Positions 43,792 to 55,406 of a stretch of 64,000 nucleotides of DNA are shown here, in pieces; position 1 is the stretch's first letter, and each line of letters starts with the position of its first letter. Below the pieces are notes generated by a model. That model was given only the letters and a program-made list of their open reading frames with translations. It did no database searches and had not been told where the DNA came from. Source of the stretch: an uncultured Chloroflexia bacterium (GTDB lineage Bacteria > Chloroflexota > Chloroflexia > Thermomicrobiales > UBA6265). A program made the position numbers and the translations under genes. The DNA lies in the NCBI GenBank assembly GCA_963741965.1, contig CAVUKC010000002.1, forward strand, positions 2,345,869-2,409,868, read 5' to 3'.

Positions 43792-44907
43792 ATGACGGTG
43801 GGAGCAACGGGACGGGTATCGCGACGTCACGCGATCGGCGCGGGGATCGGGGTGGCGGGCGCGTTGGCGATGAGCCGGGTAACCGCACAGGGGGCGACCC
43901 CGGTCGCATCGCCGGTGGCCGAGCTGCGTGTGCGGCGCAACGCGAGGGATCTCAGCGCGGATGAGAAGCGGGCGTTCACGGACGCGATTCTGGCGCTCAA
44001 GGCGAAGCCATCGCCGTGGGACGACCGTGTCAGCACCTACGACCAGTTCGTGACCTGGCATCGTGATGCCTTCCACTGCGACCTGATGGCGGCGCACATG
44101 GGCCCGGCGTTCTTTCCGTGGCACCGGCAGTTCCTGCGACTGTTCGAGCAGCAGCTGCGCGAGGTCGACCCGAGTGTGACGCTGCCGTACTGGGACTGGA
44201 CGGTCGACAACACCACGGACGCCTACATCTGGCAGGACGACTTCATGGGCGGCTCCGGCGATCCGAGCCAGGATCACGCCGTCATCGACGGGCCGTTTCG
44301 CAAGGGCGCGTGGGAGATCACCGTTTTCGACGAGGCGGACGACGAGCGGATGCCGTTCCTGGTCCGCGATCTCGGCAGCGGCAAGCTGGCGCCGGACCTG
44401 CCGACGGCGGCGCAGCTGGAGGAGGCGCTGGCGATCCCGAACTACGACGCCGCGCCATGGAACGAGCTGGCGGACCCGGCCGACAGCTTCCGGAACTTCC
44501 TCGAGGGCTGGCGCGACTGTGTGCCGCAGGACTGCTACGCGGACCCGACGAAGCACCCGGATTGCCCGGGCGACCACATGATGCACAACCGGGTGCACCT
44601 GTGGGTGTCCGGCGAGTTCATCTTCGCGCATCAGGGGGCGCATCAGCAGGAGCCGGAGCCGCTGGGGACCATGGCGATGAACGCCTCGCCGAATGACCCG
44701 GTGTTCTTCCTGCACCACGCCAATATCGACCGCTTGTGGACCGAGTGGATGCGGCGGCACGGGAGGGTGTTCGCGCCGGAGTCCGGGGCGATGCACGGGC
44801 ACAACCTGAACGATGCGATGTGGCCGTACTCGGAGATCGGGATGACGGTGACGCCGGCGATGATGCTCGACAGCGTCGCGCTCGGGTACGTCTACGACAC
44901 GGACTGA
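43792..44907 (+). CDS. Tyrosinase / type-3 copper polyphenol oxidase with its own Tat signal peptide
   Basis: VSRRHAIGAGIGVAGALAMSRVTA. CuA His in WHRDAFH...FFPWHRQF, CuB His in HNRVHLWV...FFLHHANIDRLW. Confidence 0.9.
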   Translation: MTVGATGRVSRRHAIGAGIGVAGALAMSRVTAQGATPVASPVAELRVRRNARDLSADEKRAFTDAILALKAKPSPWDDRVSTYDQFVTWHRDAFHCDLMAAHMGPAFFPWHRQFLRLFEQQLREVDPSVTLPYWDWTVDNTTDAYIWQDDFMGGSGDPSQDHAVIDGPFRKGAWEITVFDEADDERMPFLVRDLGSGKLAPDLPTAAQLEEALAIPNYDAAPWNELADPADSFRNFLEGWRDCVPQDCYADPTKHPDCPGDHMMHNRVHLWVSGEFIFAHQGAHQQEPEPLGTMAMNASPNDPVFFLHHANIDRLWTEWMRRHGRVFAPESGAMHGHNLNDAMWPYSEIGMTVTPAMMLDSVALGYVYDTD

Positions 44908-45013
44908 CCGGGTACAGCATCTGCTCGCCCGCGCGACCGGAAACTTCCGGCGCGGGAACGAGCGCGAGGGCAAGAGGAACGACGTGTGAGTGTTCGTCAT
45001 GCCGCATCCAGTT

Positions 45014-45214
45014 CGTAGGGGCGGATTCCGCAGGATATCCGCCCGGTGGTCGCGCAGCGGCCACGATGATTCCCACGAATCGATTCTGCCCTGCGGACAG
45101 GCGCTTCGCGCGGGGACCCTTCGACAAGCTCAGGGTGACGTTGCGGTGGGGTGAACTCGCTGTTCTGCCTTCAGCTCCTGCAGCGAAAACGGGCGGATAC
45201 GGGGTCCGCCCCTA
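45014..45214. repeat. Composite REP-like intergenic repeat bounded by two hairpin modules in inverted orientation
   Basis: GTAGGGGCGGATTCCGCAGGATATCCGCCC at 45014-45044, the internal ctgccctgcggacaggcgcttcgcgcggggacccttcgacaagctcagggtgac, and GGGCGGATACGGGGTCCGCCCCTA at 45191-45214 (reverse orientation). Confidence 0.7.
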
Positions 45215-45228
45215 TGGATTGGTTAATG

Positions 45229-45780
45229 CTACGAGCGGTTCTTGTTGCCCCAGGTGCCGTAGCTGACGAGCTCCTCGAGCGGCTTGCGGCCGGGCTTCGG
45301 GCCGGTCGGGCGCGGGTCCTTCGATGTCTTGTAGGGGCCGACCACCATGACGGAGTGGAGCACCATCTCCTGCGGGATGCCGAGGATGTCCTTGGCGACG
45401 CCCTCGTTCTCGGCGAACCACGCGGTGCCGGCACCGATGCCGAGCATCTCGGCGGCGATCATGATGCGCTCGCTGACGCGGCCCTCGTCGTAGGCCTCGT
45501 GGACCTCGTTCTCGCCGGGGAAGACGAGCGCGATCGCGAGCGCGCCGTCGGCGACCCAGGTGATGTTCGGGCGCAGGTCGGAGAGCTTCTTGAGGACATC
45601 CTTGTCCTCGACGACAACGAAGCGCCACGGCTGGGTGTTGCGCGAGCTGCCGGACCAGCGGGCGATCTCGAGGATCTGGTTGAGATCGTCGTCGCTGACG
45701 GCGCCGGGCTCGTACTGGCGGACCTGCCGGACCTTGCGGATGGCCTCGAGAGCGCTGGCGGTGCTGGTGACATCGGGCAT
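45229..45780 (-). CDS. Nitroreductase-family protein
   Basis: GAGGAG RBS. Start MPDVTSTASALEAIRKVRQVRQY. SSRNTQPWRFVVV (FMN-binding signature). Listed ORF 45229..46710 is an artefactual extension. Confidence 0.85.
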   Translation of the reverse strand: MPDVTSTASALEAIRKVRQVRQYEPGAVSDDDLNQILEIARWSGSSRNTQPWRFVVVEDKDVLKKLSDLRPNITWVADGALAIALVFPGENEVHEAYDEGRVSERIMIAAEMLGIGAGTAWFAENEGVAKDILGIPQEMVLHSVMVVGPYKTSKDPRPTGPKPGRKPLEELVSYGTWGNKNRS

Positions 45781-45884
45781 GGGGCTTCTCCTCGTGTCGC
45801 GTTTCGAACGTGCCTGTGTCGGCATCATAGCGTCATGAGACAGGACGGCAAAATCCTGGCCACCGGTTTGTGACCCTCGATTCG

Positions 45885-46679
45885 TCAGTGGCCGACGCCC
45901 TGGTAGCGGTTGAGGGCCTTGCTCCACAGCCAGGCGGTGACGGCGACGACGAGCGCGCTCACCAGCGGTGTGGCGAGGCCGAGCCAGCGCCATGGCGTGT
46001 CGCGGCCAAGCAGCAGCAGCGCCGGGAAGTAGCTGATGAAGGCGTAGGGGACCACGACGGTGACCAGCCCGCGGATGACGAGGTTGAAGACGTCGAGCGG
46101 GAACTTCGCGAAGTCGACCATCAGCGCGACCATCGTCGGCAGCGCGCTCTGCGCGGACGGCTCCCAGAAGCCGATCATGTTGATCACGTAGTTGAGCGCG
46201 CCGATCATCACCGCGCTCGCCGCGATCGTCATCAGCAGGAAGGGCACTGTCCACCACGCGAGCACCAGCTCGGAGCGACTCATGCCCATCCACAGCACGA
46301 CGATGCCGAGGACGAGCTGGCCGAGCCCGTGGATGGAGGCGATCGCGGTGGCGGACTGCAGCGCCGGGGAGATCGGCCGCACCAGCACGCGGTCGAACTC
46401 GCCCGAGTTGACCTTGCTGCGCAGCATCCAGGGACCGTCGCAGAAGAGCTCGGTGAAGCCCTTCGGGATCATCGCGAGGCCGTAAAGCATCGCGACGTTC
46501 CAGACGGTCCAGCCCTCGACCTCCGGGATTTGCGCGAACAGCGCCGAGATGAAGACGAGCCCGGCCGCCTGCTGGAGCATCGCGCCAACGATGCCGATCC
46601 AGAAGTCGGCGCGGTATTCGACGGTGGCGCGGAGCTGGGCGAGCTGGAGCGTGAGGTAGAGCCGCGCGTTGCGGCGCAT
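45885..46679 (-). CDS. ABC-2-type transporter permease (DUF990-like)
   Basis: Six TM helices. YRADFWIGIVG at the N-terminus is typical of this permease family. Confidence 0.8.
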   Translation of the reverse strand: MRRNARLYLTLQLAQLRATVEYRADFWIGIVGAMLQQAAGLVFISALFAQIPEVEGWTVWNVAMLYGLAMIPKGFTELFCDGPWMLRSKVNSGEFDRVLVRPISPALQSATAIASIHGLGQLVLGIVVLWMGMSRSELVLAWWTVPFLLMTIAASAVMIGALNYVINMIGFWEPSAQSALPTMVALMVDFAKFPLDVFNLVIRGLVTVVVPYAFISYFPALLLLGRDTPWRWLGLATPLVSALVVAVTAWLWSKALNRYQGVGH

Positions 46680-46714
46680 CGCGGCGAGTGGCGGCAGGGA
46701 TGACGTTCATCGGC

Positions 46715-47533
46715 TCACCCTCCCTGGATCTCGACGGCGTTGAACGCCGCCCGCCACGCCCAGTTGGCGAACACCCAGAGCGCGACGAGCCAGGCGAGCT
46801 GGAGGCCGACCAGCCACGCGGCCTCCCATGCGTCCGCCTTGCCGAGGTAGAGCGTGACCGGGGTGGCGACGATGCCGCGCATCGGCAGCACCTCGGCGAT
46901 GGCGCGCAGCCAAACTGGCAGCAGGTCGATCGGCACGAGCGTGCCGGCGAGGATGGCGATCACCGCCTGCTGCGACCACATCAGGCCGACGCCATTGAGC
47001 GTCCAGAAGGTGAGCAGCGAGATGCTGAAGACGATCAGCGCCTTGGTGACGAAGCCGATGAGAACGGTGACCACGAAGAGCGCGGCCATGCCGGGCGAGG
47101 CGGGCGGTGCGATGTCGAGCACGAAGACGCCGAGAAGCAGCGTGAAGACGAGGCTGATGATGCCCTCGGTGATCGAGAAGCCGGCCGCCATGGCGAGCTG
47201 GGTGCCGCAGTAGTTGAGCGGGCGCACCAGCTCCCGCACGATCTCGCCGGTGCGGATCGCGCCCATCATGGCGGAGCCGACGCGCCAGCCGACGAGCGCG
47301 TTGATGCCGTAGGCGAGCAGCACGTAGGTGCGCATGTCCTCCCACGTGTATCCGGCGATGAGGTCGCGCCCGGAGAACGCTGCCTTCCACAGGGAGTAGA
47401 GGATGAACACCCAGATGAAGGTGATGGCGATGTTGAAGATCGTGGTCACGCGGTAGGCGATCGCCTGCTGGAACGAGGTCATCGCGATCGAGAGGTACTT
47501 CGGCCACGGATCGACGCGGGCGCGCTCGCTCAT
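46715..47533 (-). CDS. ABC-2-type transporter permease, second subunit
   Basis: Start MSERARVDPWPKYLSIAMTSFQQAIAYRVTT, with an ATGA overlap with the ATPase stop. Six TM helices. Confidence 0.8.
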   Translation of the reverse strand: MSERARVDPWPKYLSIAMTSFQQAIAYRVTTIFNIAITFIWVFILYSLWKAAFSGRDLIAGYTWEDMRTYVLLAYGINALVGWRVGSAMMGAIRTGEIVRELVRPLNYCGTQLAMAAGFSITEGIISLVFTLLLGVFVLDIAPPASPGMAALFVVTVLIGFVTKALIVFSISLLTFWTLNGVGLMWSQQAVIAILAGTLVPIDLLPVWLRAIAEVLPMRGIVATPVTLYLGKADAWEAAWLVGLQLAWLVALWVFANWAWRAAFNAVEIQGG

Positions 47534-48594
47534 GATGTCGCCTCCCCGACGGCGTCGAAGCGGAGCGAGCCCTCGTAGAGCTGGCGGATGATCGACTCCG
47601 CGGTCGGCTCCTCGATGCGGATGTCGGCGATCGGCAGGGCGGTGGCGAGATCGCGAATCAGCTCGCCGGAGGTCGCCTCGCGGCTGTCGAAGGCGATGGT
47701 GACGGTGGTGTCGTCGGGCTGCTCCACATGCGCGTGGGTGTGTCGCCGGAGCGCGGTGGTGGCGGTCGATGCGGCGTCCGGCGCCTCCTCGGCGAAGGTG
47801 AGGTGGAGGCGCTGCTCCCAGCCGAAGCGACGGGTGACGTCTCTCAACGCGCCGTCGTAGACGATCGTGCCCTTGTCGATCATCACCATCCGCTCGCAGA
47901 GCTCCTCGATGTCGCCGAGGTCGTGCGAGGTGAGCATCACCGTGAGACCGCGCTGCTGGTGCATGTAGCGGATGAACTCGCGGAAGCGGGCCTTCACGGC
48001 GACGTCGAGACCGATGGTGGGCTCGTCGAGGTAGAGCACCGGCGGCGAGTGGATCAGCGAGGCGGCGAGGTCGCAGCGCATGCGCTGGCCGAGCGAGAGC
48101 TGGCGGGCGGGAACGCTCAGGAGCGGGGCGAGGTCGAGCACGTCGACCAGCTCGGCGACGGTGCGGCGGTAGGTGTCGGCGGGGACGTCGTAGATGTCGC
48201 CGATGAGGCGGAAGGACTCCTGCACGGCGATGTCCCACCAGAGCTGGGTGCGCTGGCCGAAGACGACGCCGATGTTGCGGGCGTTGGCCATGCGCTGCTC
48301 GAACGGCGTGAGCCCGCAGACGGTGACCTCGCCCGCGCTCGGGACGAGGATGCCGGTGAGGAGCTTGACGGTGGTGGACTTGCCGGCGCCGTTGGGGCCG
48401 ACGTAGGCGACGCTCTCGCCGGGGGCGATGGTGAGGTCGATGCCGTCGACGGCGGTGAAGGTGTCGTAGCTGGGACGGACGAGGTGGCGGAGCGCCCCGG
48501 CGAGACCGGGCTGCTTGCGCGGGCGGCGGAAGCGCTTGGTGAGTCCGCGCGCCTGGATGATCGGCTCGGTCGGAGTCGGGGTCGGGTCAGTCAT
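47530..48594 (-). CDS. ABC transporter ATP-binding protein
   Basis: Start MTDPTPTP. Walker A GPNGAGKST, signature LSLGQRMR, Walker B VLYLDEPTIGLD, and a C-terminal extension of about 110 aa. Confidence 0.9.
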   Translation of the reverse strand: MTDPTPTPTEPIIQARGLTKRFRRPRKQPGLAGALRHLVRPSYDTFTAVDGIDLTIAPGESVAYVGPNGAGKSTTVKLLTGILVPSAGEVTVCGLTPFEQRMANARNIGVVFGQRTQLWWDIAVQESFRLIGDIYDVPADTYRRTVAELVDVLDLAPLLSVPARQLSLGQRMRCDLAASLIHSPPVLYLDEPTIGLDVAVKARFREFIRYMHQQRGLTVMLTSHDLGDIEELCERMVMIDKGTIVYDGALRDVTRRFGWEQRLHLTFAEEAPDAASTATTALRRHTHAHVEQPDDTTVTIAFDSREATSGELIRDLATALPIADIRIEEPTAESIIRQLYEGSLRFDAVGEATS

Positions 48595-48855
48595 GGTCGG
48601 GCTGCGCTCCGCCGGGTAAGCGTGGTCGATGGGTCGTGTTCCATGACCGTACCGCAAACGTACATGTAGGGCCAGCGCGGGAGCGGCGCCGCCTGATGAT
48701 CCATTGGGGCCACCTGGGTCAGGCCCATGCAATCACCGCCGTGCCAGAGGGGCGGCGCCGGCACGCCACGTGGCTCCTCACGTGCCCGTCTGCCGAGGTA
48801 GAGCTTCACCTGGGTGGGGAGAGTTGGTTCACCACAGCTGAAGAGGAGCGACATG

Positions 48856-49200
48856 TCATGAGGAGATGAGTTTGCGAGTGCTCCAAAATGCCCATAGATA
48901 GGTCGCGGCAATAGCTGTAAGGAAAAATCCTATCCCGTTCCAAATGAGAAAATAGGCGGGGATCAAGGCGCCTATCCCGCATGCGAGCCAGATCCATCGG
49001 TGAGAGGACGGAATATCCGACGTTATGACGACGGAGGCGAGCCCCACAGCAAAGGGGAGCCCGAACCCGAGGAAGATAAGCAACGCTCGCATTGGATCTG
49101 AAACGTTGCCAGCGATGGCAACGATAGCGACGAGCATTATCCCTATTCCGCTGGCCCACCCGACGATGAATCCATAATCACCAGGCGCATTCGATCTCAT
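48856..49200 (-). CDS. Small integral membrane protein (4 TM) encoded in the low-GC islet
   Basis: ORF 48856..49200. Hydrophobic, with low-GC codon usage unlike its neighbours. It follows the Cys-rich secreted protein gene. Confidence 0.55.
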   Translation of the reverse strand: MRSNAPGDYGFIVGWASGIGIMLVAIVAIAGNVSDPMRALLIFLGFGLPFAVGLASVVITSDIPSSHRWIWLACGIGALIPAYFLIWNGIGFFLTAIAATYLWAFWSTRKLISS

Positions 49201-49230
49201 TGCGCGTGGATACCGTCCCCTCAGTTGGAA

Positions 49231-49274
49231 GTCTATCCTGAGAAAGAGAGTAGGAGTCTCCTCTCAGGATAGAC
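49231..49274 (-). terminator. Intercistronic hairpin (13-bp perfect stem GTCTATCCTGAGA/TCTCAGGATAGAC, 18-nt loop) between the Cys-rich protein gene and the small membrane protein gene
   Basis: Seen directly. It begins 9 nt after the upstream stop and ends 31 nt before the downstream ATG. It may be a partial terminator or a processing site. Confidence 0.4.
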
Positions 49275-49282
49275 AGCGGACG

Positions 49283-49960
49283 CTAGTTCCAGTTGCCACC
49301 GCATTCGAGATGGCCGCCGGGCACGATGCCACCGTAGATACTGCAGTAGTGATCCCACGCACCACCCGGCCATCCGTAGAATGTGGCGTCAAGCGTGTGG
49401 TAGCAGGACCCGTCGTAGAAATCGAACGTACATCTATTCCATGTTGAAACCGAGCTTGGCCCGTCGCCAAGCATGCCCCAAGCCACGGATTCGATCAGCC
49501 AACCGTCCGGAAAAACTCGACACACCGGTGATGGTGACGATCCACCGTAAACCGTCGATCCATCGTCGTAGTACTGCATATATGCGAATGCCTCGGTTAG
49601 AACGATGCCACAGCAGTCATGGTGTTCGGTCCACGCAGCTCCTTCATGCCACGTGGAAGCTACACGACTCATGCTACTCGTCTTCTTATCGACGCTCGTC
49701 ACGACGAGCTGACAGTTCTGAGTGACTTCCACGACCATGACGCTTTCGGATACCGATGCGTCGTTGCTTTGTCCAAACGTGGTTTCCGGAAAATCGCAAA
49801 CCGTTTGGTCTGCCTGCTTCGAGAGAGTTCCTTGGCCCACCACATCGCCGGAAGCAACTTGCGCCTTGGCGATGATCGATCCGGTTGGCGACATCATAAC
49901 AATGAGCACTACAAGGGCGGCAAGCGTTGATAGATGAAGCATGGAAACGCGTCGGTGCAT
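49283..49960 (-). CDS. Secreted Cys/aromatic-rich protein of unknown function (low-GC islet)
   Basis: GGAGAG lies 4 nt before the ATG at 49960. Signal peptide MHRRVSMLHLSTLAALVVLIVMMSPTGSIIAKA|QV. The mature part has 9 Cys and many W/Y/G. I recognise no family. Confidence 0.6.
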   Translation of the reverse strand: MHRRVSMLHLSTLAALVVLIVMMSPTGSIIAKAQVASGDVVGQGTLSKQADQTVCDFPETTFGQSNDASVSESVMVVEVTQNCQLVVTSVDKKTSSMSRVASTWHEGAAWTEHHDCCGIVLTEAFAYMQYYDDGSTVYGGSSPSPVCRVFPDGWLIESVAWGMLGDGPSSVSTWNRCTFDFYDGSCYHTLDATFYGWPGGAWDHYCSIYGGIVPGGHLECGGNWN

Positions 49961-50405
49961 GACGCTCTCCACAAGACTCGCCAGGAGGGGTGCCGAACGA
50001 CGGCAATCCTCTGGCCCGAACTGTTAGCCGTTGTGTCGCACGACGCAAACGAATATACCCGGGTGTATCGGTAGTTTATCACGACACATATAAATGCTCA
50101 ACAGCTGCTGTTAAGGAGCGACCTCGGAGCCACTACATCGTATGGTGGAGCTACGATGCACCATTCATGATGATGGCCATGCCCAGCCGTGGTCACGCTT
50201 CGCGGGAGGGCGTGAGACCCGCATGTCGCTCGAGCCGTGGTGACTTTTCAGAATCGTGCTTGAGAGTGGGGACATCGCCGGCACTCCGTCCCTCTCACCC
50301 CTGTCCGCCAGTTGATTCCGGCCATCCATCATGTCGATGTCGATGCGCTCGTATTGCGGCATGATGTCGTGAACCGATGTGCTCCCGTATGGAACAGGTG
50401 AGGTG

Positions 50406-50996
50406 ATGATGCCGGATTGCGCACCGCACCAGACGAAGACGCCCGGGGTCGAGCATGACCCGCCGGTGGACGACGAGGCTCTGCTGAGCAGGGTCGCGGA
50501 CGGTGACTCGCGCGCGCTGCGCCATCTCTACGAGGCGCACGCCGGCTGGATCGCCGCACGCCTGCGGCAGAAGCTGCCGGCGCACGCTGTCGAGGATGTG
50601 TTGCAGGAAACCTTCCTCGCTGTCTGGCGCGGGGCCGCGCGGTATCACGGCACCAGCGACGTCGGCGGCTGGATCTGGGGCATCGCCCGACTCCGGTTGG
50701 CGCGCTGGTACCGGGATCACGGCCGGGAGCCCGCCGGGATGGTCGAAGAGTGGGTGCCGAGCGGGGAGGATCCCGCCGGGGATGCCATCGACCGGATGGA
50801 TCTCGAGCGGGCGTTCGCGACGCTGGGCGACCGCGACCACGACGATCGACGGCTGGCCGAAGCGTACTACCGCGAGGACCGGCCGGTGAAGGAGGTCGCC
50901 GCGCGGCTCGGTATCCCGGCCGGCACCGTCAAGAGCCGGTTGTTTCGCATTCGTCGCCGCCTGATCGCGGCGCTGGAACGAGAGCCTGGGCAATGA
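50406..50996 (+). CDS. ECF-type RNA polymerase sigma factor (sigma-70 regions 2 and 4)
   Basis: Region 2: LYEAHAGWIAARLRQKL...VEDVLQETFLAVW. Region 4: VKEVAARLGIPAGTVKSRLFRIRRRL. GAGGTG RBS. Confidence 0.85.
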   Translation: MMPDCAPHQTKTPGVEHDPPVDDEALLSRVADGDSRALRHLYEAHAGWIAARLRQKLPAHAVEDVLQETFLAVWRGAARYHGTSDVGGWIWGIARLRLARWYRDHGREPAGMVEEWVPSGEDPAGDAIDRMDLERAFATLGDRDHDDRRLAEAYYREDRPVKEVAARLGIPAGTVKSRLFRIRRRLIAALEREPGQ

Positions 50997-51007
50997 GGGA
51001 GCGACCT

Positions 51008-51745
51008 ATGGATACGCGATCAGTTGCACCGCCGCCCGATATCGACCTCGACCGGGTCTGGAACCGGGTGACCGGGGAGATCTGGGCGAGCGAGCCGGGC
51101 CGGCTGGAGCGCGCCGCGACGAGGTTGCTGGGATCGCCGGCCCTGGCGCGCGCGCTGGTGACCACGCCGTCGCTGGTGGCGGCGTGGCTGCTGGCAAGCG
51201 TGCTGGTGCTTGCACTGGGCGTGGTTGTCACCAACGCAACGGCGGAGCCGTGGGTGCCGCTGCTGGCCCCGGTGGTGGCGATAGTTGGCGTGTCGTTCGT
51301 CTATGGCTCGGGCGCTGACCCGGCATGGGAGATCGTGCGGACGGTGGCGCTGCCACGACGCATGGTGCTGCTGGTGCGGGTGACGGCGGTCTTCCTGACC
51401 AACATGGCGATCGCGCTGATCGCGGCGCTGCTCACGCCGATGGCCGGGTCGATCGTGGTGCTGTGGCTGCTGCCGATGGTCGGGTTGTCGATGATCGCGC
51501 TGGCGTTCGCGACGTGGACGCAGTCGCCGGTGTTCGGGGCGGCGAGCGGGTTGGCGATCTGGTTCGCGGTGGCGCTGCAGAGCCTGACTCGCGCCGGTGA
51601 TGTCACCGCCTTCGTGCGGGATGACGTCATTGCCGGGATGGCGCCGCTCTACGTGCTGGCGACGGTACTGGCGACGGTGCTGGTAATGCTGGGATCGGGC
51701 GGGCTGCCCGGGCAGGATCGATGGGAGTCGATGCGATGGTCATGA
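51008..51745 (+). CDS. Multi-pass membrane protein in the anti-sigma position (no zf-HC2 motif)
   Basis: It begins 12 nt after the sigma stop (an alternative ATG at 50993 overlaps it). A cytoplasmic N-terminus of about 45 aa is followed by 5-6 TM helices. Confidence 0.5.
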   Translation: MDTRSVAPPPDIDLDRVWNRVTGEIWASEPGRLERAATRLLGSPALARALVTTPSLVAAWLLASVLVLALGVVVTNATAEPWVPLLAPVVAIVGVSFVYGSGADPAWEIVRTVALPRRMVLLVRVTAVFLTNMAIALIAALLTPMAGSIVVLWLLPMVGLSMIALAFATWTQSPVFGAASGLAIWFAVALQSLTRAGDVTAFVRDDVIAGMAPLYVLATVLATVLVMLGSGGLPGQDRWESMRWS

Positions 51746-52551
51746 CGAGGACACGAGCGACGGAGCAGCGGATGATCGAGGTAGGTGTGGATCTGGAGGG
51801 CGTGGGGCACGCGTTCGGGCGGCACACGGCGCTGGAAGACGTCACGCTGCATGCCGGCAACGGCGTGTTCGGGCTGCTCGGGCCGAACGGTGCCGGCAAG
51901 AGCACGCTGTTGCGGATCATGGCGACGGTGCTGAAGCCCTCGCGGGGCGAGGTGCGCCTGCTGGGCCTGAACCCGCAGGACGGGCATGAGCTGCGCGCGA
52001 TCCGGCGGGAGCTGGGCTATCTGCCGCAGCAGTTCGGCTACTACCCCAACTTCACGGTGTTCGAGTTCATCGAGTACTTCGCGCTGCTGAAGGAGATGCC
52101 TCCCCGGCAGGTGCGGCCGGCGGTCGCGAGCGCGATCGAGCGTGTCGGGCTGGAGGACCGGGCGAAGGCGAAGATGAAGTCGCTCTCCGGCGGCATGCTT
52201 CGGCGGGTCGGGATCGCGCAGGCGATCGTCAATGAGCCGGCGCTACTGCTGCTGGACGAGCCGACGGTGGGGCTGGACCCGGAGCAGCGAGTGCTGTTCC
52301 GACGGCTGCTGCGGGAGATCGGGGAGCGCTCGGCGGTATTCGTGAGCACGCACCTGGTCGAGGACGTCGCGGCGGCGTGCAGTGACGTGCGGGTGCTGGA
52401 CGCGGGTCGGGTCATCTACGAGGGCGACGCCGGAGATCTCAAGCGCATCGGCGCCGGTGCCAGCGAGGCGGACGCCGCCGGGGACTCCGAGATCGAGCGC
52501 GGCTACAGCGCGGTGCTGCTCTCCGCGCGAGGCTCCAGGGAGGTGCGGTGA
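51742..52551 (+). CDS. ABC transporter ATP-binding protein
   Basis: Walker A GPNGAGKSTLL, signature LSGGMLRR, Walker B LLLLDEPTVGLD. ATGA overlap with the upstream gene. Confidence 0.9.
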   Translation: MTRTRATEQRMIEVGVDLEGVGHAFGRHTALEDVTLHAGNGVFGLLGPNGAGKSTLLRIMATVLKPSRGEVRLLGLNPQDGHELRAIRRELGYLPQQFGYYPNFTVFEFIEYFALLKEMPPRQVRPAVASAIERVGLEDRAKAKMKSLSGGMLRRVGIAQAIVNEPALLLLDEPTVGLDPEQRVLFRRLLREIGERSAVFVSTHLVEDVAAACSDVRVLDAGRVIYEGDAGDLKRIGAGASEADAAGDSEIERGYSAVLLSARGSREVR

Positions 52552-54047
52552 TGAGCCAGGCGGGAATGACGAGAATGAAGGCAGGCCATCGTGTTCACTT
52601 GCACGCGGGCGCACCGGGACGGTTCTCGCGAATGGTCGGGCTCGATTTTCGCCATGGGTACGGTGTGTGGATCGTGCCGGTGCTGATCGCGCTGGGCTGT
52701 CTGTACTCCATCCGCGTTGACGAGCCGAACACGCCGATGTGGGGGTATCGCTCGGTGCGCCTGGCATGGACCTTCGCGGCGCTGGGACCGATCGGGGCGG
52801 CGTGGGGCTCGTGGCTCGCCGGGCGGGAGCGGCGGGCACGCACGGAGACGCTGATCGCCTCGACGCCGACGCGGCCGCTGGTGCGCGACGCCCGTGCGCT
52901 CGTGGTGCCGGTGCTCGGCAGCCTGCTGGCCTACATCGGGATCGCCGCGTTTGTGCTCGGCCGGACCGCGATCCAGACGGCGTGGGGCCAGCCAGTGTGG
53001 CCGATCGTCATCTATGCCGGGTCGGTGATCGCCGCCTACACGATCGTCGGCACCATTGCTGGGCTGCTCGTACCCGCGCGTGTCACCTCACTCGTCGTCG
53101 GGATCGGTCTCTTCCTGTTCACGACACTGAGCTTCACCTATCTCGATACCCAGTCGGCCTACCGATACCTGGCGCCGTTCCGGTGGGTCGGCGACCCGCA
53201 CGCGTACGACGACGTGCTGTTCTACGGAGATCGGAGTGGCGGTCAGCTGCTCATTGCCTACGCGTTGGCGCTCGGGGCGGTTCTGGCCACCATCGCGGTG
53301 CTGCTTTTCGCGAGGGTTGGCCGCAAGGGTGGGATGCTCGTGGGATTGGCCGCCGCGATCGTTCTCGTCCCGTCGATCGACGCGGCCATCACCCCCATCG
53401 GGAGCCCGGCGACATACCGGATTGCAGCGCTGGCGGATGTCGACGTGGCCCCGCGGGGACCGGTCGAGGACCCGACGCTCGTCTGCGCCGGTGATGTGGT
53501 CGAGACGTGCGTGCACAAGGCGTTCGAGGGGGATGTGCCGGCGGTGGCGGCGCGGGTGGAGGAGGTGCTGGCACCGGTGATCGGTCTTTCCGGCGTGCCG
53601 ACGCGCTTCGAGCAGCGGGCGGACGTGCCATCGGACGGCACGGTGGCGCGGTTCACTGCCACCTGGTCGTGGAGCGATCCGGTTGGGGCCATCGACGATG
53701 TGATCGTGTCGACGTTGTTCGTCGCCGACGGACACTCGGCTTCGTCGGATCGACCGAAAGCCCAGACGCCGGCGCAGATCGCGATCGCGCTCGGGCTGGT
53801 GCGGCATGCGGGCGGCGCTGGGATGATGCCGGTCGACATTTCCGGCTACGAGTTCCCGGGTGGCGATGGTCGCCCGAACGAGTCAGAAGTCGAGGCGTGG
53901 CGGGAGGATCTCCAGGGCATTCAGGCGGCGATCTCGACGGCGGCCGATCGCTTTTCGGCGCTGCCGCCGGAGGAGCAGCGGGCGTGGCTGGAGGCGCACT
54001 GGGATTCGCTCCGCTCCGGTGAGCTGACGCTGGAGGATTTGCCGTGA
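52551..54047 (+). CDS. Large membrane protein (about 6 TM plus a ~200-aa extracytoplasmic C-terminal domain), putative ABC partner
   Basis: GGGAGG lies 7 nt before the ATG at 52551, and the start overlaps the ATPase stop. I recognise no family. Confidence 0.55.
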   Translation: MSQAGMTRMKAGHRVHLHAGAPGRFSRMVGLDFRHGYGVWIVPVLIALGCLYSIRVDEPNTPMWGYRSVRLAWTFAALGPIGAAWGSWLAGRERRARTETLIASTPTRPLVRDARALVVPVLGSLLAYIGIAAFVLGRTAIQTAWGQPVWPIVIYAGSVIAAYTIVGTIAGLLVPARVTSLVVGIGLFLFTTLSFTYLDTQSAYRYLAPFRWVGDPHAYDDVLFYGDRSGGQLLIAYALALGAVLATIAVLLFARVGRKGGMLVGLAAAIVLVPSIDAAITPIGSPATYRIAALADVDVAPRGPVEDPTLVCAGDVVETCVHKAFEGDVPAVAARVEEVLAPVIGLSGVPTRFEQRADVPSDGTVARFTATWSWSDPVGAIDDVIVSTLFVADGHSASSDRPKAQTPAQIAIALGLVRHAGGAGMMPVDISGYEFPGGDGRPNESEVEAWREDLQGIQAAISTAADRFSALPPEEQRAWLEAHWDSLRSGELTLEDLP

Positions 54048-54120
54048 TGGTTCGATGTGGTCGTAACGCGGGAACGGACCTCGCACACGAGGTGCGGGGC
54101 TGCAGGTTGGAGTCGCGGTC

Positions 54121-54819
54121 GTGAGCAGCATGCTGGCGCGCGCGTCGGACGCCACGATCCAGGTTCGCTGGCGGCTGCTGCGCGGGTACGTGCTCTCGCG
54201 GCGGCTGCCGGGGAGCTGGCTGCTGATGCTCGCTCTGCTGGGCGCGGTCATCTGCGGCGGCGGGTGGGGGCGCGAACACGAGCCGATGTCGCTGTGGCTG
54301 CTGACCTTCCTGCTGCCGATGGCGACGGCATCGGTGATCGGGGTCAGTCTCTGGTCGCCGTTCGGTGAGACCGAGCGCGCGGCTGGGACCTGGTTGCCGC
54401 TGGCGCGCTCGCTGCATCTTGCGTCACTGCTCGTGGCGGTGCTGCTCGTCAACCAGGTGGCTGAGACGATGTGGGTTCCGAGCGGTGACAGCCAGCCGTG
54501 GGCGGCGTACCTGCTGCGGCACACCACGCTGTTGATCGGCATCGCGTTGCTGGCGGCGCGCGTCATCGATTCACGGTTGAGCTGGGTCGCGCCGGCGGTG
54601 GTAGCGCTGTCCGGCGTGGCGATGGGGCTCAGCCGTGTCGAGCGGGCCGTGGCCGAAGGGCAGTCGGTGACGTTCTTCCACGACTCCTGGCATCCGATGC
54701 TGCGCCCGGCGGATTCGACGGTGTCGCAGGTCGTGGCGATCGGCGTGTTTCTCGTGGGAGTCGGACTGGTGGTTTGGTCGGGCGAGCGCCTGGTCGATCC
54801 GGAGGATGCTGCGGGGTAG
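54121..54819 (+). CDS. Integral membrane protein (6 TM), unknown function
   Basis: ORF 54121..54819. Hydrophobic, same strand, and the last gene of the sigma-led cluster. Confidence 0.5.
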   Translation: MSSMLARASDATIQVRWRLLRGYVLSRRLPGSWLLMLALLGAVICGGGWGREHEPMSLWLLTFLLPMATASVIGVSLWSPFGETERAAGTWLPLARSLHLASLLVAVLLVNQVAETMWVPSGDSQPWAAYLLRHTTLLIGIALLAARVIDSRLSWVAPAVVALSGVAMGLSRVERAVAEGQSVTFFHDSWHPMLRPADSTVSQVVAIGVFLVGVGLVVWSGERLVDPEDAAG

Positions 54820-55406
54820 CGGGAGGTGACGCGATTTCCTGCTCCGCCGGCTGCGGTCGAAATGGGACAAGCGACGACTCAGGCGATGGCTGCGAGCGTG
54901 AGATGCGCGCTCGCTGAGGCATGTTGATCTGATGCGCAACCGAATCGGCACTGGACACGTTATCGTTATAGAGGGAAACGGTTGCTGCCGGGGTGGCGCA
55001 GCCGTGGTATCCCACGGGACTGACAACAACACACCAGGGTGGGGAGACGGACTCTCATGATGCGAGAGCCCGACTGACCGTGACGTGGCGCGCACCTCAG
55101 GTGCGACCCGGCATCGATCGCGCGCTGCCGTGCACGGGAACGCTCCCAGACAACATCACCGAAATGGATGCAACGCGTCGCTGCGATGCGACGGTGCGTT
55201 GCTTTCGATCGCGCGAACGACGGATGGGGAGGACGAGCATTGCTTGCGGACCGCGCATACGCTGACATGGTAGACGAGCCCGATCGAGCCGAGCCCGTGA
55301 ACCGGATCGGTCGGATGGCTGGTATGCTCCGCAACGCCGTGCTGCCCGATGTCCATCCGTAGATGCCACGATCGCTGGAGAGGCGACGAGGCGCGAATTC
55401 TGGGGG

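Follow-up and report, generated by a model that had tools for sequence, protein, structure and literature searches.

The question raised by this locus is where a short low-GC islet in the genome of an uncultured Chloroflexia bacterium came from, and what its two genes might do together. The window analysed is the whole 64-kb stretch of DNA in which the islet lies. A sequence-only reading had picked out the islet from the G+C content of single 60-nt lines, and had compared its genes, one for a secreted Cys-rich protein and one for a small membrane protein, with a toxin or bacteriocin gene followed by a read-through immunity gene.

Composition and surroundings of the islet

Sliding-window GC, GC3, and tetranucleotide analysis all marked the islet as an outlier, bearing out the claim of low GC, and the original line counts could be reproduced exactly (40/60 at 48001; 28, 29, 36, 31, and 26 at 48841, 48901, 49441, 49681, and 50041, respectively). 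The lowest-GC 1.5-kb window of the whole 64 kb starts at 48851 and has a GC fraction of 0.555, compared with a mean of 0.674 (sd 0.021); the significant dip on which the earlier claim had been staked is present, with z of about −5.7. At about 48800–50110, the islet is the strongest composition outlier in the window (55% GC versus 67%), and in 300-nt windows GC is 54–60% over 48650–50450 compared with 65–73% on both flanks. It is also the top tetranucleotide outlier, with an L1 distance of 0.478 (mean 0.239, sd 0.038). Because GC3 also drops, to 0.61 and 0.60 in the two islet genes from 0.84–0.96 in six flanking genes, the low GC of the islet does not come from amino-acid composition.

Two zones could be distinguished. 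The core of the presumed foreign cassette (48800..50110, strand not assigned) is a sharp low-GC block of 47–57% in 100-nt windows and coincides with the segment homologous to the cassettes of relatives. In alignment with the L001 and L011 cassettes, homology starts at a promoter-like block and ends at the stop codon of the partner gene, such that the composition borders of the cassette are its homology borders. Beyond the core lies a shoulder of intermediate GC (50111..50405, likewise unstranded; 55–64% to about 50380 in the 100-nt profile). No alignment was found between this shoulder, upstream of the promoter-like block, and the relatives' cassettes, nor does its 65-aa ORF have a counterpart in L011. 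The shoulder is probably the host's own intergenic sequence and the promoter region of a divergent ECF sigma gene, outside the imported unit.

An ECF sigma/ABC module does adjoin the islet on the plus strand, as first described, and is host-like in composition across 50406..54047 (GC3 of 0.84–0.90). It comprises the ECF sigma factor (50406–50996), a 250-aa membrane protein without Pfam family that overlaps the sigma stop codon (50993–51745) and could, as a guess, be an anti-sigma factor, an ABC ATPase (51721–52551), and a 499-aa membrane protein, also without Pfam family (52548–54047). Directly downstream of the pair and on the same minus strand is an ABC-2 exporter operon (45885..48594) with a host-like GC3 of 0.95–0.96. 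It contains an ATPase (47530–48594), an ORF without match that is presumed to be a second permease (about 46715–47480, frame tentative), and a permease matching PF06182 (45885–46679). A terminator scan gave no terminator-like site between the cassette and this operon. The nearest homologues of the flanking ABC ATPase retrieved by a genome-contig scan were only from Bacillales, at 45–49% identity. The wider neighbourhood in the window is stress- and envelope-related, with a catalase, a nitroreductase, ABC exporters, a VanW-like PG-binding protein, and Usp.

The two genes and their putative control elements

The gene for the 225-aa secreted precursor (P0001) lies at 49283..49960 on the minus strand, as judged from its ORF, alignments, and AF2 model; its signal-peptide coding part (codons 1–33, 49862..49960, minus strand) was read directly from sequence features. 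Residues 1–33 form a predicted Sec-type signal peptide, with HRR in the n-region, a hydrophobic core, and a cleavage site between AKA and Q. The small-x-A motif followed by Q aligns among relatives, and the cleavage site between A and Q is conserved. The mature protein is 192 aa long, rich in W/Y/G, and acidic (pI about 4.3; mostly 4–5.7 in the family), and has nine Cys. It consists of an N-terminal module (C55, C83), a variable linker at about residues 95–102, and a C-terminal W/Y/G-rich module, in which C147, C177, C206, and C220 are conserved within the clade of the window protein. The minus-strand precursor, its signal peptide, its nine mature Cys, and the C terminus originally quoted for it were all confirmed. 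Across the family, the number of Cys is typically even and their positions are rewired between clades, a pattern of extracellular disulfide-rich proteins, and we infer that the protein is exported and carries disulfides. The AF2 model (pLDDT 88.5, pTM 0.80) is all-beta with 14 sequential beta strands; pLDDT is about 50 over residues 1–30, and beta structure begins at residue 40.

That this protein fits no family, as had been stated, held up in sequence-profile and fold searches alike. No family match was obtained in Pfam, NCBIfam, PHROGs, or PADLOC, Pfam screening of 30 family members gave nothing consistent, and a PDB profile search by sequence gave no match. Searches of the model against PDB and BFVD folds gave only poor matches, with TM below 0.3 and a best value of 0.41 when normalised to a small target. 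No conserved catalytic motif was evident in the family alignment. A beta-gamma-crystallin or Ca-binding reading of the YYDDGS stretch was rejected by eye on unfit motif spacing and the absence of a fold match.

The partner gene (48856..49200, minus strand) encodes a 114-aa protein for which the four TM helices noted earlier are supported by hydropathy and an AF2 model (pLDDT 84, pTM 0.74; helices at residues 7–31, 36–58, 64–84, and 90–113). The positive-inside rule predicts an N-in/C-in topology, whereby the short conserved motifs S-D-P (loop 1) and W-N-G-x-G-F (loop 3) would face outward, in loops only 3–8 residues long, and R-R-W-x-W would face inward; the C terminus carries Y-L-W-A-F-W-S-T-R. 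Searches with the partner in Pfam, NCBIfam, PHROGs, PADLOC, PDB sequences, and PDB/BFVD folds gave no match, and nothing consistent was seen when 12 family members were run against Pfam. Pairwise dN/dS is 0.09–0.20 for the secreted-protein gene and 0.12–0.42 for the partner gene. Together with the confident AF2 models, these values indicate that both ORFs are real genes under purifying selection, and they give no sign of diversifying selection.

Between the two genes, on the minus strand, is a stem-loop (49231..49276) of about 20 bp with one bulge, whose 13 perfect bp (arms at 49231–49243 and 49262–49274) are those already noted at 49231–49274. Its RNA has an MFE of −42 kcal/mol (z = −4.2 to −4.4), and 0/200 shuffles fold as well. 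The stem is strong and lacks a U-tract: no T-run follows it, the terminator scan did not call it, and it is therefore not an intrinsic (rho-independent) or canonical leaky terminator. The hairpin may rather set the ratio of the two products through protection of mRNA 3′ ends or partial attenuation than through full termination. L001 (z = −6.2) and L011/L014 (z = −2.4 to −2.8) likewise have a hairpin between the two genes, but one of different sequence, such that position but not sequence is kept in the nearest lineage; the L008/L017 lineage has none at the corresponding position.

Upstream of the secreted gene, a putative sigma-70-type promoter was read by eye from the alignment at 50073..50101 on the minus strand (TTGAGC, 17 nt, TGaTAAACT, an extended −10), where it aligns with TTGCAA, 16 nt, TGcTATTAT of the L011 lineage. 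In a consensus-threshold promoter scan it scores below the cut-off; if functional, it would place the transcription start about 7 nt downstream of 50073. The presumed 5′ leader contains a conserved block, TCGTGCGACA, with the short inverted repeat GTCG-TG-CGAC (50034..50043, minus strand). This block is invariant in the window and in L001/L011/L014, occurs upstream of the secreted gene in 6/6 loci of that lineage, and has one exact copy in the window; no enrichment was seen for the motif alone. It is a possible operator or leader element. Across 44000–55000, no Rfam elements were found except one sub-threshold match inside the ABC operon.

Relatives of the pair and origin of the islet

The secreted and partner genes occur side by side in six or more lineages, and the flanks of the pair are unrelated in each of them, which strengthens the earlier claim that the two form one unit. 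The pair was found in L001/L011–15, L002–6, L008/9/17/18/19, L016, and L020, and the identities of the two proteins co-vary (0.66/0.61, 0.47/0.41, 0.40/0.32, 0.76/0.72, and 0.94/0.97). Common to the cassettes are the promoter-like block, the 5′ motif, and, in the nearest lineage, the position of the hairpin. Each gene is single-copy in the window and in the relatives' loci, and neither orphan partner genes nor multiple copies were seen in the window or the fetched loci, most relatives being on short contigs. In the distant members L010 and L101, the same downstream position is taken by non-homologous genes for small polytopic membrane proteins, the turnover expected of immunity-type partners. 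Both families are very rare (3–6 clusters in 5.8 billion, 42 representatives in 1.84 billion, and 11 partner clusters in 5.8 billion), and a genome-contig scan with the family alignment found nothing. The nearest named relative comes from a Thermomicrobiales MAG; no relatives were found on plasmids, phages, or IMG/VR viral contigs.

Foreign composition, co-inheritance across unrelated flanks, and a shared promoter/leader block together argue, at the level of sequence, that the islet is a self-contained cassette of two genes and about 1.3 kb that was acquired horizontally. With genomic islands and integrative elements it shares a sharp compositional discontinuity, accessory cargo, and differing insertion contexts. 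Unlike these, it is only 1.3 kb long and has no integrase, tRNA target, convincing att-like repeats, or phage, plasmid, or viral relatives, and it looks like a naked gene cassette or "islet". The lack of an integrase, tRNA, or convincing border repeat had been pointed out previously and was substantiated here: the 64-kb window contains no tRNA, and a domain scan of the ten larger ORFs within about 10 kb showed neither an integrase nor a transposase. A candidate repeat bracketing the cassette, ACAGCTG..AGGAGCGAC, was rejected, having p = 0.24 against real window pairs (p = 0.015 against shuffles).

Those same absences would suit a pair ancestral to the host lineage, with its low GC arising from selection (e.g. 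on expression or mRNA structure) or odd local mutation. The cassettes of other hosts also lie 3–8 GC points below their flanks (L001, L011, L008, and L017, where flanks are adequate), and low GC could therefore be intrinsic to the genes. Such an origin is nevertheless very improbable, given that the GC3 gap of about 0.25–0.35 to every neighbour is far past normal within-genome variation in the window, that the context is unrelated in each lineage, that composition and homology borders coincide, and that GC3 of the cassette equals that of relatives (0.57–0.65) in hosts of 59–62% GC.

Candidate functions of the pair

The best-fitting explanation of the pair is that one gene encodes an exported effector and the other its cognate immunity or handling protein, a reading to which we assign a probability of roughly 0.35. 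Here, the cassette-borne promoter would drive the gene for an acidic all-beta protein from a family not described before, exported by Sec and stabilised by disulfides, followed by the intercistronic stem-loop and a dedicated four-helix membrane protein that co-diverges with it. The secreted protein would act outside the cell against competitors as a large, bacteriocin-like protein toxin; the partner would stay in the producer membrane and protect the producer or handle the effector, in the manner of immunity proteins, and the hairpin would hold the level of the upstream message above that of the downstream one. This whole toxin/immunity function is drawn by analogy. Of the original toxin-and-immunity proposal, the gene order stood, since a bacteriocin/immunity operon likewise has a structural gene for an exported product ahead of a gene for a small membrane protein, both on one strand and inherited as a unit, and the patchy distribution and foreign origin also fit. 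The remainder fared less well: neither protein resembles a toxin, bacteriocin, or immunity family in sequence or fold; unlike most membrane-targeting bacteriocins, the mature protein is acidic and not cationic; the marks of an arms race (diversifying selection, orphan immunity genes, and multiple paralogous pairs) were not seen in pairwise dN/dS or in the window and the fetched loci; and read-through at a terminator is at odds with the missing U-tract.

Comparison with known systems gives partial likenesses. Sec-dependent bacteriocins are paired with membrane immunity proteins in enterocin P-type class II loci and in lactococcin 972 loci, and the immunity proteins of pore-forming colicins have 3–4 TM helices. 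Like the cassette, Sec-dependent pairs have a signal-peptide structural gene and then a small polytopic membrane gene on the same strand with a stem-loop between, and are accessory, patchy, and horizontally moved without need of a dedicated exporter. The cassette product differs from those bacteriocins in lacking any sequence or fold relationship to them and in being much larger (192 aa), acidic, and all-beta, with 3–4 predicted disulfides. For the lactococcin 972 family (PF09683), no Pfam match was found at E ≤ 0.1 for the window protein or at E ≤ 1 for 30 family members. Immunity to lactococcin 972 comes from an ABC transporter and a membrane protein that are encoded alongside it and transferred together with it, whereas the ABC transporters flanking the islet are host-like (GC3 of 0.90–0.96) and missing from the relatives' cassettes. 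With class III-like large bacteriocins the secreted protein shares a size of about 20 kDa, Sec-type export, and two modules with a variable linker, as in targeting-plus-killing layouts. Known class III bacteriocins are peptidoglycan hydrolases (M23, amidase) or helveticin-type proteins; no lytic or helveticin domain was found by Pfam in 30 family members or by NCBIfam, PDB sequence, and fold searches.

Among the Foldseek matches of the secreted protein, the best is Zea (Lmo2686) of Listeria monocytogenes, a secreted RNA-binding protein of small size (PMC6907008). The match (PDB 4k15; E = 1.5e-3, probability 1.0) has a TM of only 0.27 (query) or 0.41 (target), an rmsd of 11 Å, and 9% identity, and the PDB profile search gave no sequence match to it. 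The two proteins have in common that they are bacterial, small, secreted, and rich in beta structure, although Zea is not Cys-rich, and on the model comparison it may serve as a lead rather than a match. We know of no relationship between Zea and a 4-TM partner.

Two other functions have to be weighed against an effector with its immunity protein. The pair might be a surface or sensing module. Rather than being released against other cells, the secreted beta protein would then stay at the 4-TM partner or signal by way of it, with the partner serving as anchor, receptor, or transducer. The two would make up an extracytoplasmic sensor or a device for envelope maintenance, and adjacent HTH or ECF-sigma regulators would read its output or control its expression. 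In three lineages (L002, L008/L009/L017, and L101), the gene immediately upstream of the pair encodes a GerE/LuxR-type HTH protein, which in L002, where it is a fragment, is membrane-anchored. An ECF sigma gene with an overlapping gene of no assigned function adjoins the pair in two (the window and L008/L017/L019), and purifying selection, the tight co-divergence of both genes, and the stress- and envelope-related neighbourhood are all compatible with sensing. These regulators are, however, not orthologous between lineages and are absent from L011 and L007, the sigma module of the window lies outside the imported unit, the short outward loops of the partner offer little surface for a stable receptor, and a foreign, patchy, accessory distribution would be unusual for envelope housekeeping. 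We consider this a serious rival to the effector reading, if somewhat less likely. A shared ECF module was itself rejected, as the sigma factors of the two lineages are 26% identical and only generically similar and the genes following them are unrelated; a LuxR remnant in the islet was likewise dismissed when tblastn of the relatives' upstream regulators against it returned nothing.

Less likely than sensing, and improbable, is ligand binding or scavenging, in which an up-and-down beta barrel or sheet would capture a metal, a glycan, or some small hydrophobic compound extracellularly and exchange it with the membrane partner. Analogies are the lipocalin-like YceI with cytochrome b561, and CopC with CopD. 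As in YceI/b561, a gene for an exported up-and-down beta protein adjoins one for a four-helix membrane protein. In the model, 14 long strands follow one another as a meander, and the weak Foldseek matches are mostly up-and-down barrels (GFP-like, lipocalin, LolA, FABP-like Ycf58, CpeS lyase, and porins). The family has conserved aromatic, Gly, and Asp positions (W154, Y130, D132-D133-G-S), and the window clade a His/Cys-rich stretch, WTEHHDCCG. Yet HHDCC is not conserved family-wide, no calycin-like barrel (lipocalin, FABP, YceI, or avidin) was matched with a TM above about 0.5, and, unlike YceI/b561, the pair has no Pfam match to YceI or b561, nor to lipocalin, CopC, or any CBM family. The partner alignment has no conserved His, Cys, or Met fit to ligate metal or haem.

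If the effector and immunity reading is carried to its full extent, the cassette would represent a new class of protein antagonism in Chloroflexota-type bacteria, with a Sec-exported, acidic, disulfide-locked beta toxin whose fold is not in the PDB and a 114-aa four-helix immunity protein, moving as a naked 1.3-kb promoter-to-stop cassette without a mobility gene; this we put forward as speculative. Whatever its function, the locus illustrates a tiny cassette moving between genomes without recognisable mobility machinery, and it joins two unannotated, very rare families with confident predicted structures and no solved analogue in a compact entry point (two genes, 1.3 kb) to the function of microbial dark matter. 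If the pair forms a surface sensor, a new extracytoplasmic domain would be tied into regulation of the LuxR and ECF types. Were an antimicrobial role true, the secreted protein would, to our knowledge, be among the first protein toxins described from the Thermomicrobiales/Chloroflexota neighbourhood, and both its fold and the very small determinant of immunity that comes with it would be new features.

Composition and layout of the islet

In windows of 300 nt, GC falls from 65–73% to 54–60% across ~48650–50450. At 100-nt resolution, this appears as a sharp low-GC block at ~48800–50110 and a shoulder of 55–64% GC reaching to ~50380, with GC back to the host level at the ECF sigma gene. No other 1.5-kb window in the 64 kb is as poor in GC as the one beginning at 48851 (0.555; mean 0.674, sd 0.021), and this stretch also deviates most in tetranucleotide usage (0.478; mean 0.239, sd 0.038). 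GC3 values of the two islet genes are 0.61 and 0.60, versus 0.84–0.96 in six neighbours on both sides, and the dip is therefore a difference in codon usage, not a side effect of unusual amino-acid composition. The low-GC islet claimed in the sequence-only reading was thus recovered by sliding-window GC and by tetranucleotide usage, its G+C counts for individual lines were all reproduced exactly, and the observation as a whole was confirmed in all particulars.

Both genes are on the minus strand. As read from the alignment with relatives, they are preceded by a promoter-like block (50101–50073; TTGAGC, 17 nt, TGaTAAACT), which scores under the threshold of a consensus promoter scan. This is followed by a leader with an invariant TCGTGCGACA (50043–50034), a ribosome-binding site (GGAGAG), the gene for the 225-aa precursor (49960–49283), a stem-loop (49276–49231), and the gene for the 114-aa membrane protein (49200–48856). 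A terminator scan gave no terminator-like site 3' of the latter, and an ABC-2 exporter operon of host composition continues downstream on the same strand. On the other side, the divergent genes encode an ECF sigma factor, a 250-aa membrane protein whose gene overlaps the stop of the sigma gene, an ABC ATPase, and a 499-aa membrane protein; all four have host composition, matching the ECF sigma/ABC module that had been described as abutting the islet on the opposite strand.

Just upstream of, and overlapping, the putative −35 box is a terminator-like palindrome (50097–50115, minus strand; CTTAACAGC AGC TGTTGAG, then an A/T-rich tail), which may be an insulator against upstream transcription or a remnant of the donor context. 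The closest homologues of the ATPase of the ABC-2 exporter (operon 45885–48594, minus strand) were Bacillales (Fictibacillus, Neobacillus, and the Bacillus cereus group; 45–49% identity) among the best 80 of 543 matches, in a scan with search patterns derived from the query; none of these 80 was from a closer relative of the 67% GC genome. A sub-threshold match to the Rfam DUF3085 RNA motif (47163–47236, minus strand; 26.6 bits versus a gathering score of 40.6, E = 0.36) falls within the coding region of the ABC permease and is probably due to chance.

The two proteins and the hairpin between their genes

At the N terminus of the precursor, P0001, a basic n-region (HRR) is followed by a hydrophobic core and then by an AKA|Q cleavage site, and a small-x-A|Q motif can be aligned in relatives. 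For structure prediction, AF2 was run with a 30-sequence alignment (mean pLDDT 88.5, pTM 0.80); residues 1–30 are of low confidence, and ordered beta structure begins at residue 40 as an up-and-down meander in which 14 strands follow one another in sequence, many with a length of 10–15 residues. In the family alignment, an N-terminal module in which two Cys (C55 and C83) are near-invariant is joined by a linker of ~8 to ~60 residues to a C-terminal W/Y/G-rich module, whose four conserved Cys are partly rewired in position between clades. The number of Cys per member is typically even (6 in most, 8 in the window's clade), and the family is acidic (pI mostly 4–5.7); for the window protein, the values are 9 Cys and pI ~4.3. 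The Cys-rich precursor with signal peptide was correctly recognized from the sequence. We infer a stable, extracellular protein with predicted disulfide locking. Scrambled, frameshift-like C termini were seen in the family members P0005, P0007, and P0009 and at locus L019 (349–969, two tblastn segments in different frames), representing either decaying copies or low-coverage assembly errors.

The AF2 model of the membrane partner (pLDDT 84, pTM 0.74; 12 sequences) has four helices (7–31, 36–58, 64–84, and 90–113), all of them hydrophobic, as expected of the four-TM protein proposed earlier. By the positive-inside rule, the topology would be N-in/C-in, with the short conserved motifs S-D-P and W-N-G-x-G outside and R-R-W-x-W inside. 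The 114-aa sequence is absent from a collection of 15 billion proteins that does include P0001, encoded next to it on the same 2.43-Mb contig; the profile search gave a best match of only 65% identity, and the gene was probably left uncalled in the annotation of the source genome.

Neither protein matched Pfam, NCBIfam, PHROGs, or PADLOC, PDB profile searches with both were empty, and no Pfam family recurred among 30 secreted and 12 partner members scanned singly. Foldseek of the secreted-protein model against PDB gave no match at E < 1e-3. Its best match was 4k15 (TM 0.27/0.41, rmsd 11 Å), the Listeria secreted RNA-binding protein Lmo2686/Zea (PMC6907008), and the others were up-and-down barrels with TM ≤ 0.27; a BFVD fold search was likewise without a meaningful match. 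The partner resembles only generic four-helix bundles. Both proteins represent new and rare families for which no structural analogue has been solved, their architecture is of a familiar kind, and the earlier failure to place the Cys-rich protein in any family held through all these searches.

The stem-loop has 13 perfect pairs, as had been noted, and is extendable to ~20 (MFE −42 kcal/mol, z ~ −4.3; 0 of 200 shuffles fold equally well). At L001, a locus of the nearest lineage, a strong hairpin (z = −6.2) of wholly different sequence occupies the matching intercistronic position, which argues that structure, not sequence, is conserved; the L008/L017 lineage lacks a hairpin there. Of the hairpin-with-read-through arrangement proposed before, the strong stem stands, but the U-tract is missing, and a leaky intrinsic terminator is the less likely reading. 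The hairpin would rather be a transcript-stabilising or attenuating element fixing the ratio of the two products.

Distribution and origin of the cassette

The secreted family is very rare: in 5.8 billion sequences, a single-sequence search gave 3 clusters and a profile search 6, and a set of 1.84 billion yielded 42 representatives. The partner family has 11 clusters; the sole relative with a name is a hypothetical protein from a Thermomicrobiales MAG. Homologous pairs were found in at least six lineages (window; L001/L011-15; L002-6; L008/9/17/18/19; L016, with a partner lengthened to 222 aa and an hhalign probability of 90%; and L020, where a contig end cuts the upstream gene). In the distant L010 and L101, the downstream slot is taken by a non-homologous small polytopic membrane gene, and in L007 by a 580-aa gene. 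Pairwise identities of the two proteins co-vary between lineages, and purifying selection acts on both genes (dN/dS 0.09–0.42). Flanks differ in every lineage: L011 has Mrp/ParA, a histidine kinase, and IS110, L008/L017 have a regulator of LuxR type and an unrelated ECF sigma, and the window has ABC and ECF sigma. DNA homology with the nearest lineage runs from the promoter-like block to the partner stop codon, and these limits are those of the sharp GC block. The cassette is a foreign, self-contained, co-inherited operon for a predicted-exported beta protein and a small membrane protein.

Its GC3 (0.60–0.61) equals that of relatives in 59–62% GC hosts (0.57–0.65), which suggests that the donor had moderate GC and that the cassette has ameliorated little since its acquisition; at 64–66% protein identity, the actual donor is outside the sampled relatives. 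The window contains no tRNA, the ORFs scanned within ~10 kb include neither an integrase nor a transposase, and searches of plasmids, phages, and viral contigs yielded no relatives. An imperfect direct repeat (ACAGCTG, 3–6 nt, AGGAGCGAC; 48834–48852 and 50101–50122) brackets the imported unit exactly, as one copy is 4 nt past the partner stop and the other immediately 5' of the −35 box, its first base overlapping the box. As an insertion mark it was rejected, with p = 0.015 versus shuffles but p = 0.24 versus real same-spacing pairs from the window; the borders are, as first stated, without integrase, tRNA, or a direct repeat above background.

The sole mobility gene seen near any cassette copy is an IS110-family transposase fragment (L011:14196-14717, minus strand) in the Thermomicrobiales MAG lineage, ~3 kb from the pair on its downstream side. 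The gene of the distant member P0042 is ~6–8 kb from a defence-island-flavoured cluster (DUF6615, 8xMP, and a weak ThsB-TIR match; L007:2118-3726), on a 2.26-Mb contig where most genes are without Pfam domains.

Possible functions of the pair

Three readings were considered. At a probability of roughly 0.35, the secreted protein would be, by analogy, an exported antagonistic effector and the partner its cognate immunity or handling protein. Gene order, the accessory and patchy distribution, partner turnover in distant members, the intercistronic hairpin, and the stable disulfide-rich build are consistent with this; the protein is, however, acidic and without a toxin-like domain, and neither diversifying selection nor orphan partners were seen. 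The islet and its unit, as first interpreted, are real and foreign, whereas their toxin/immunity function is analogy only.

In three separate lineages, the secreted-protein gene is immediately preceded by a gene for a GerE/LuxR-type HTH regulator (L002:2-367; L008:54-644; L009:240-911; L017:423-1088; L101:236-508); these regulators differ in type (membrane-anchored, receiver-like, or 90-aa stand-alone). An ECF sigma gene, its stop overlapped by an unannotated downstream gene, adjoins the pair in two lineages, divergently in the window (50406–51745, plus strand) and downstream of the pair elsewhere (L008:2545-3400; L017:2652-4287; L019:1662-3297); the sigmas of the two lineages are 26% identical, their downstream genes are unrelated, and the recurrence may be coincidence or a functional theme. 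These neighbours would suit a surface or sensing module coupled to HTH or ECF regulators, which we consider somewhat unlikely, as the regulators are not orthologous, are missing from some lineages, and have host composition in the window. The least probable of the three is a ligand-binding barrel for which the membrane protein would act as hand-off partner; the weak barrel-type fold matches are its sole support. The effector/immunity reading thus ranks highest, and by analogy there is a reasonable chance that the pair is a new protein toxin/immunity pair. As a piece of dark matter, the islet is compact and testable.
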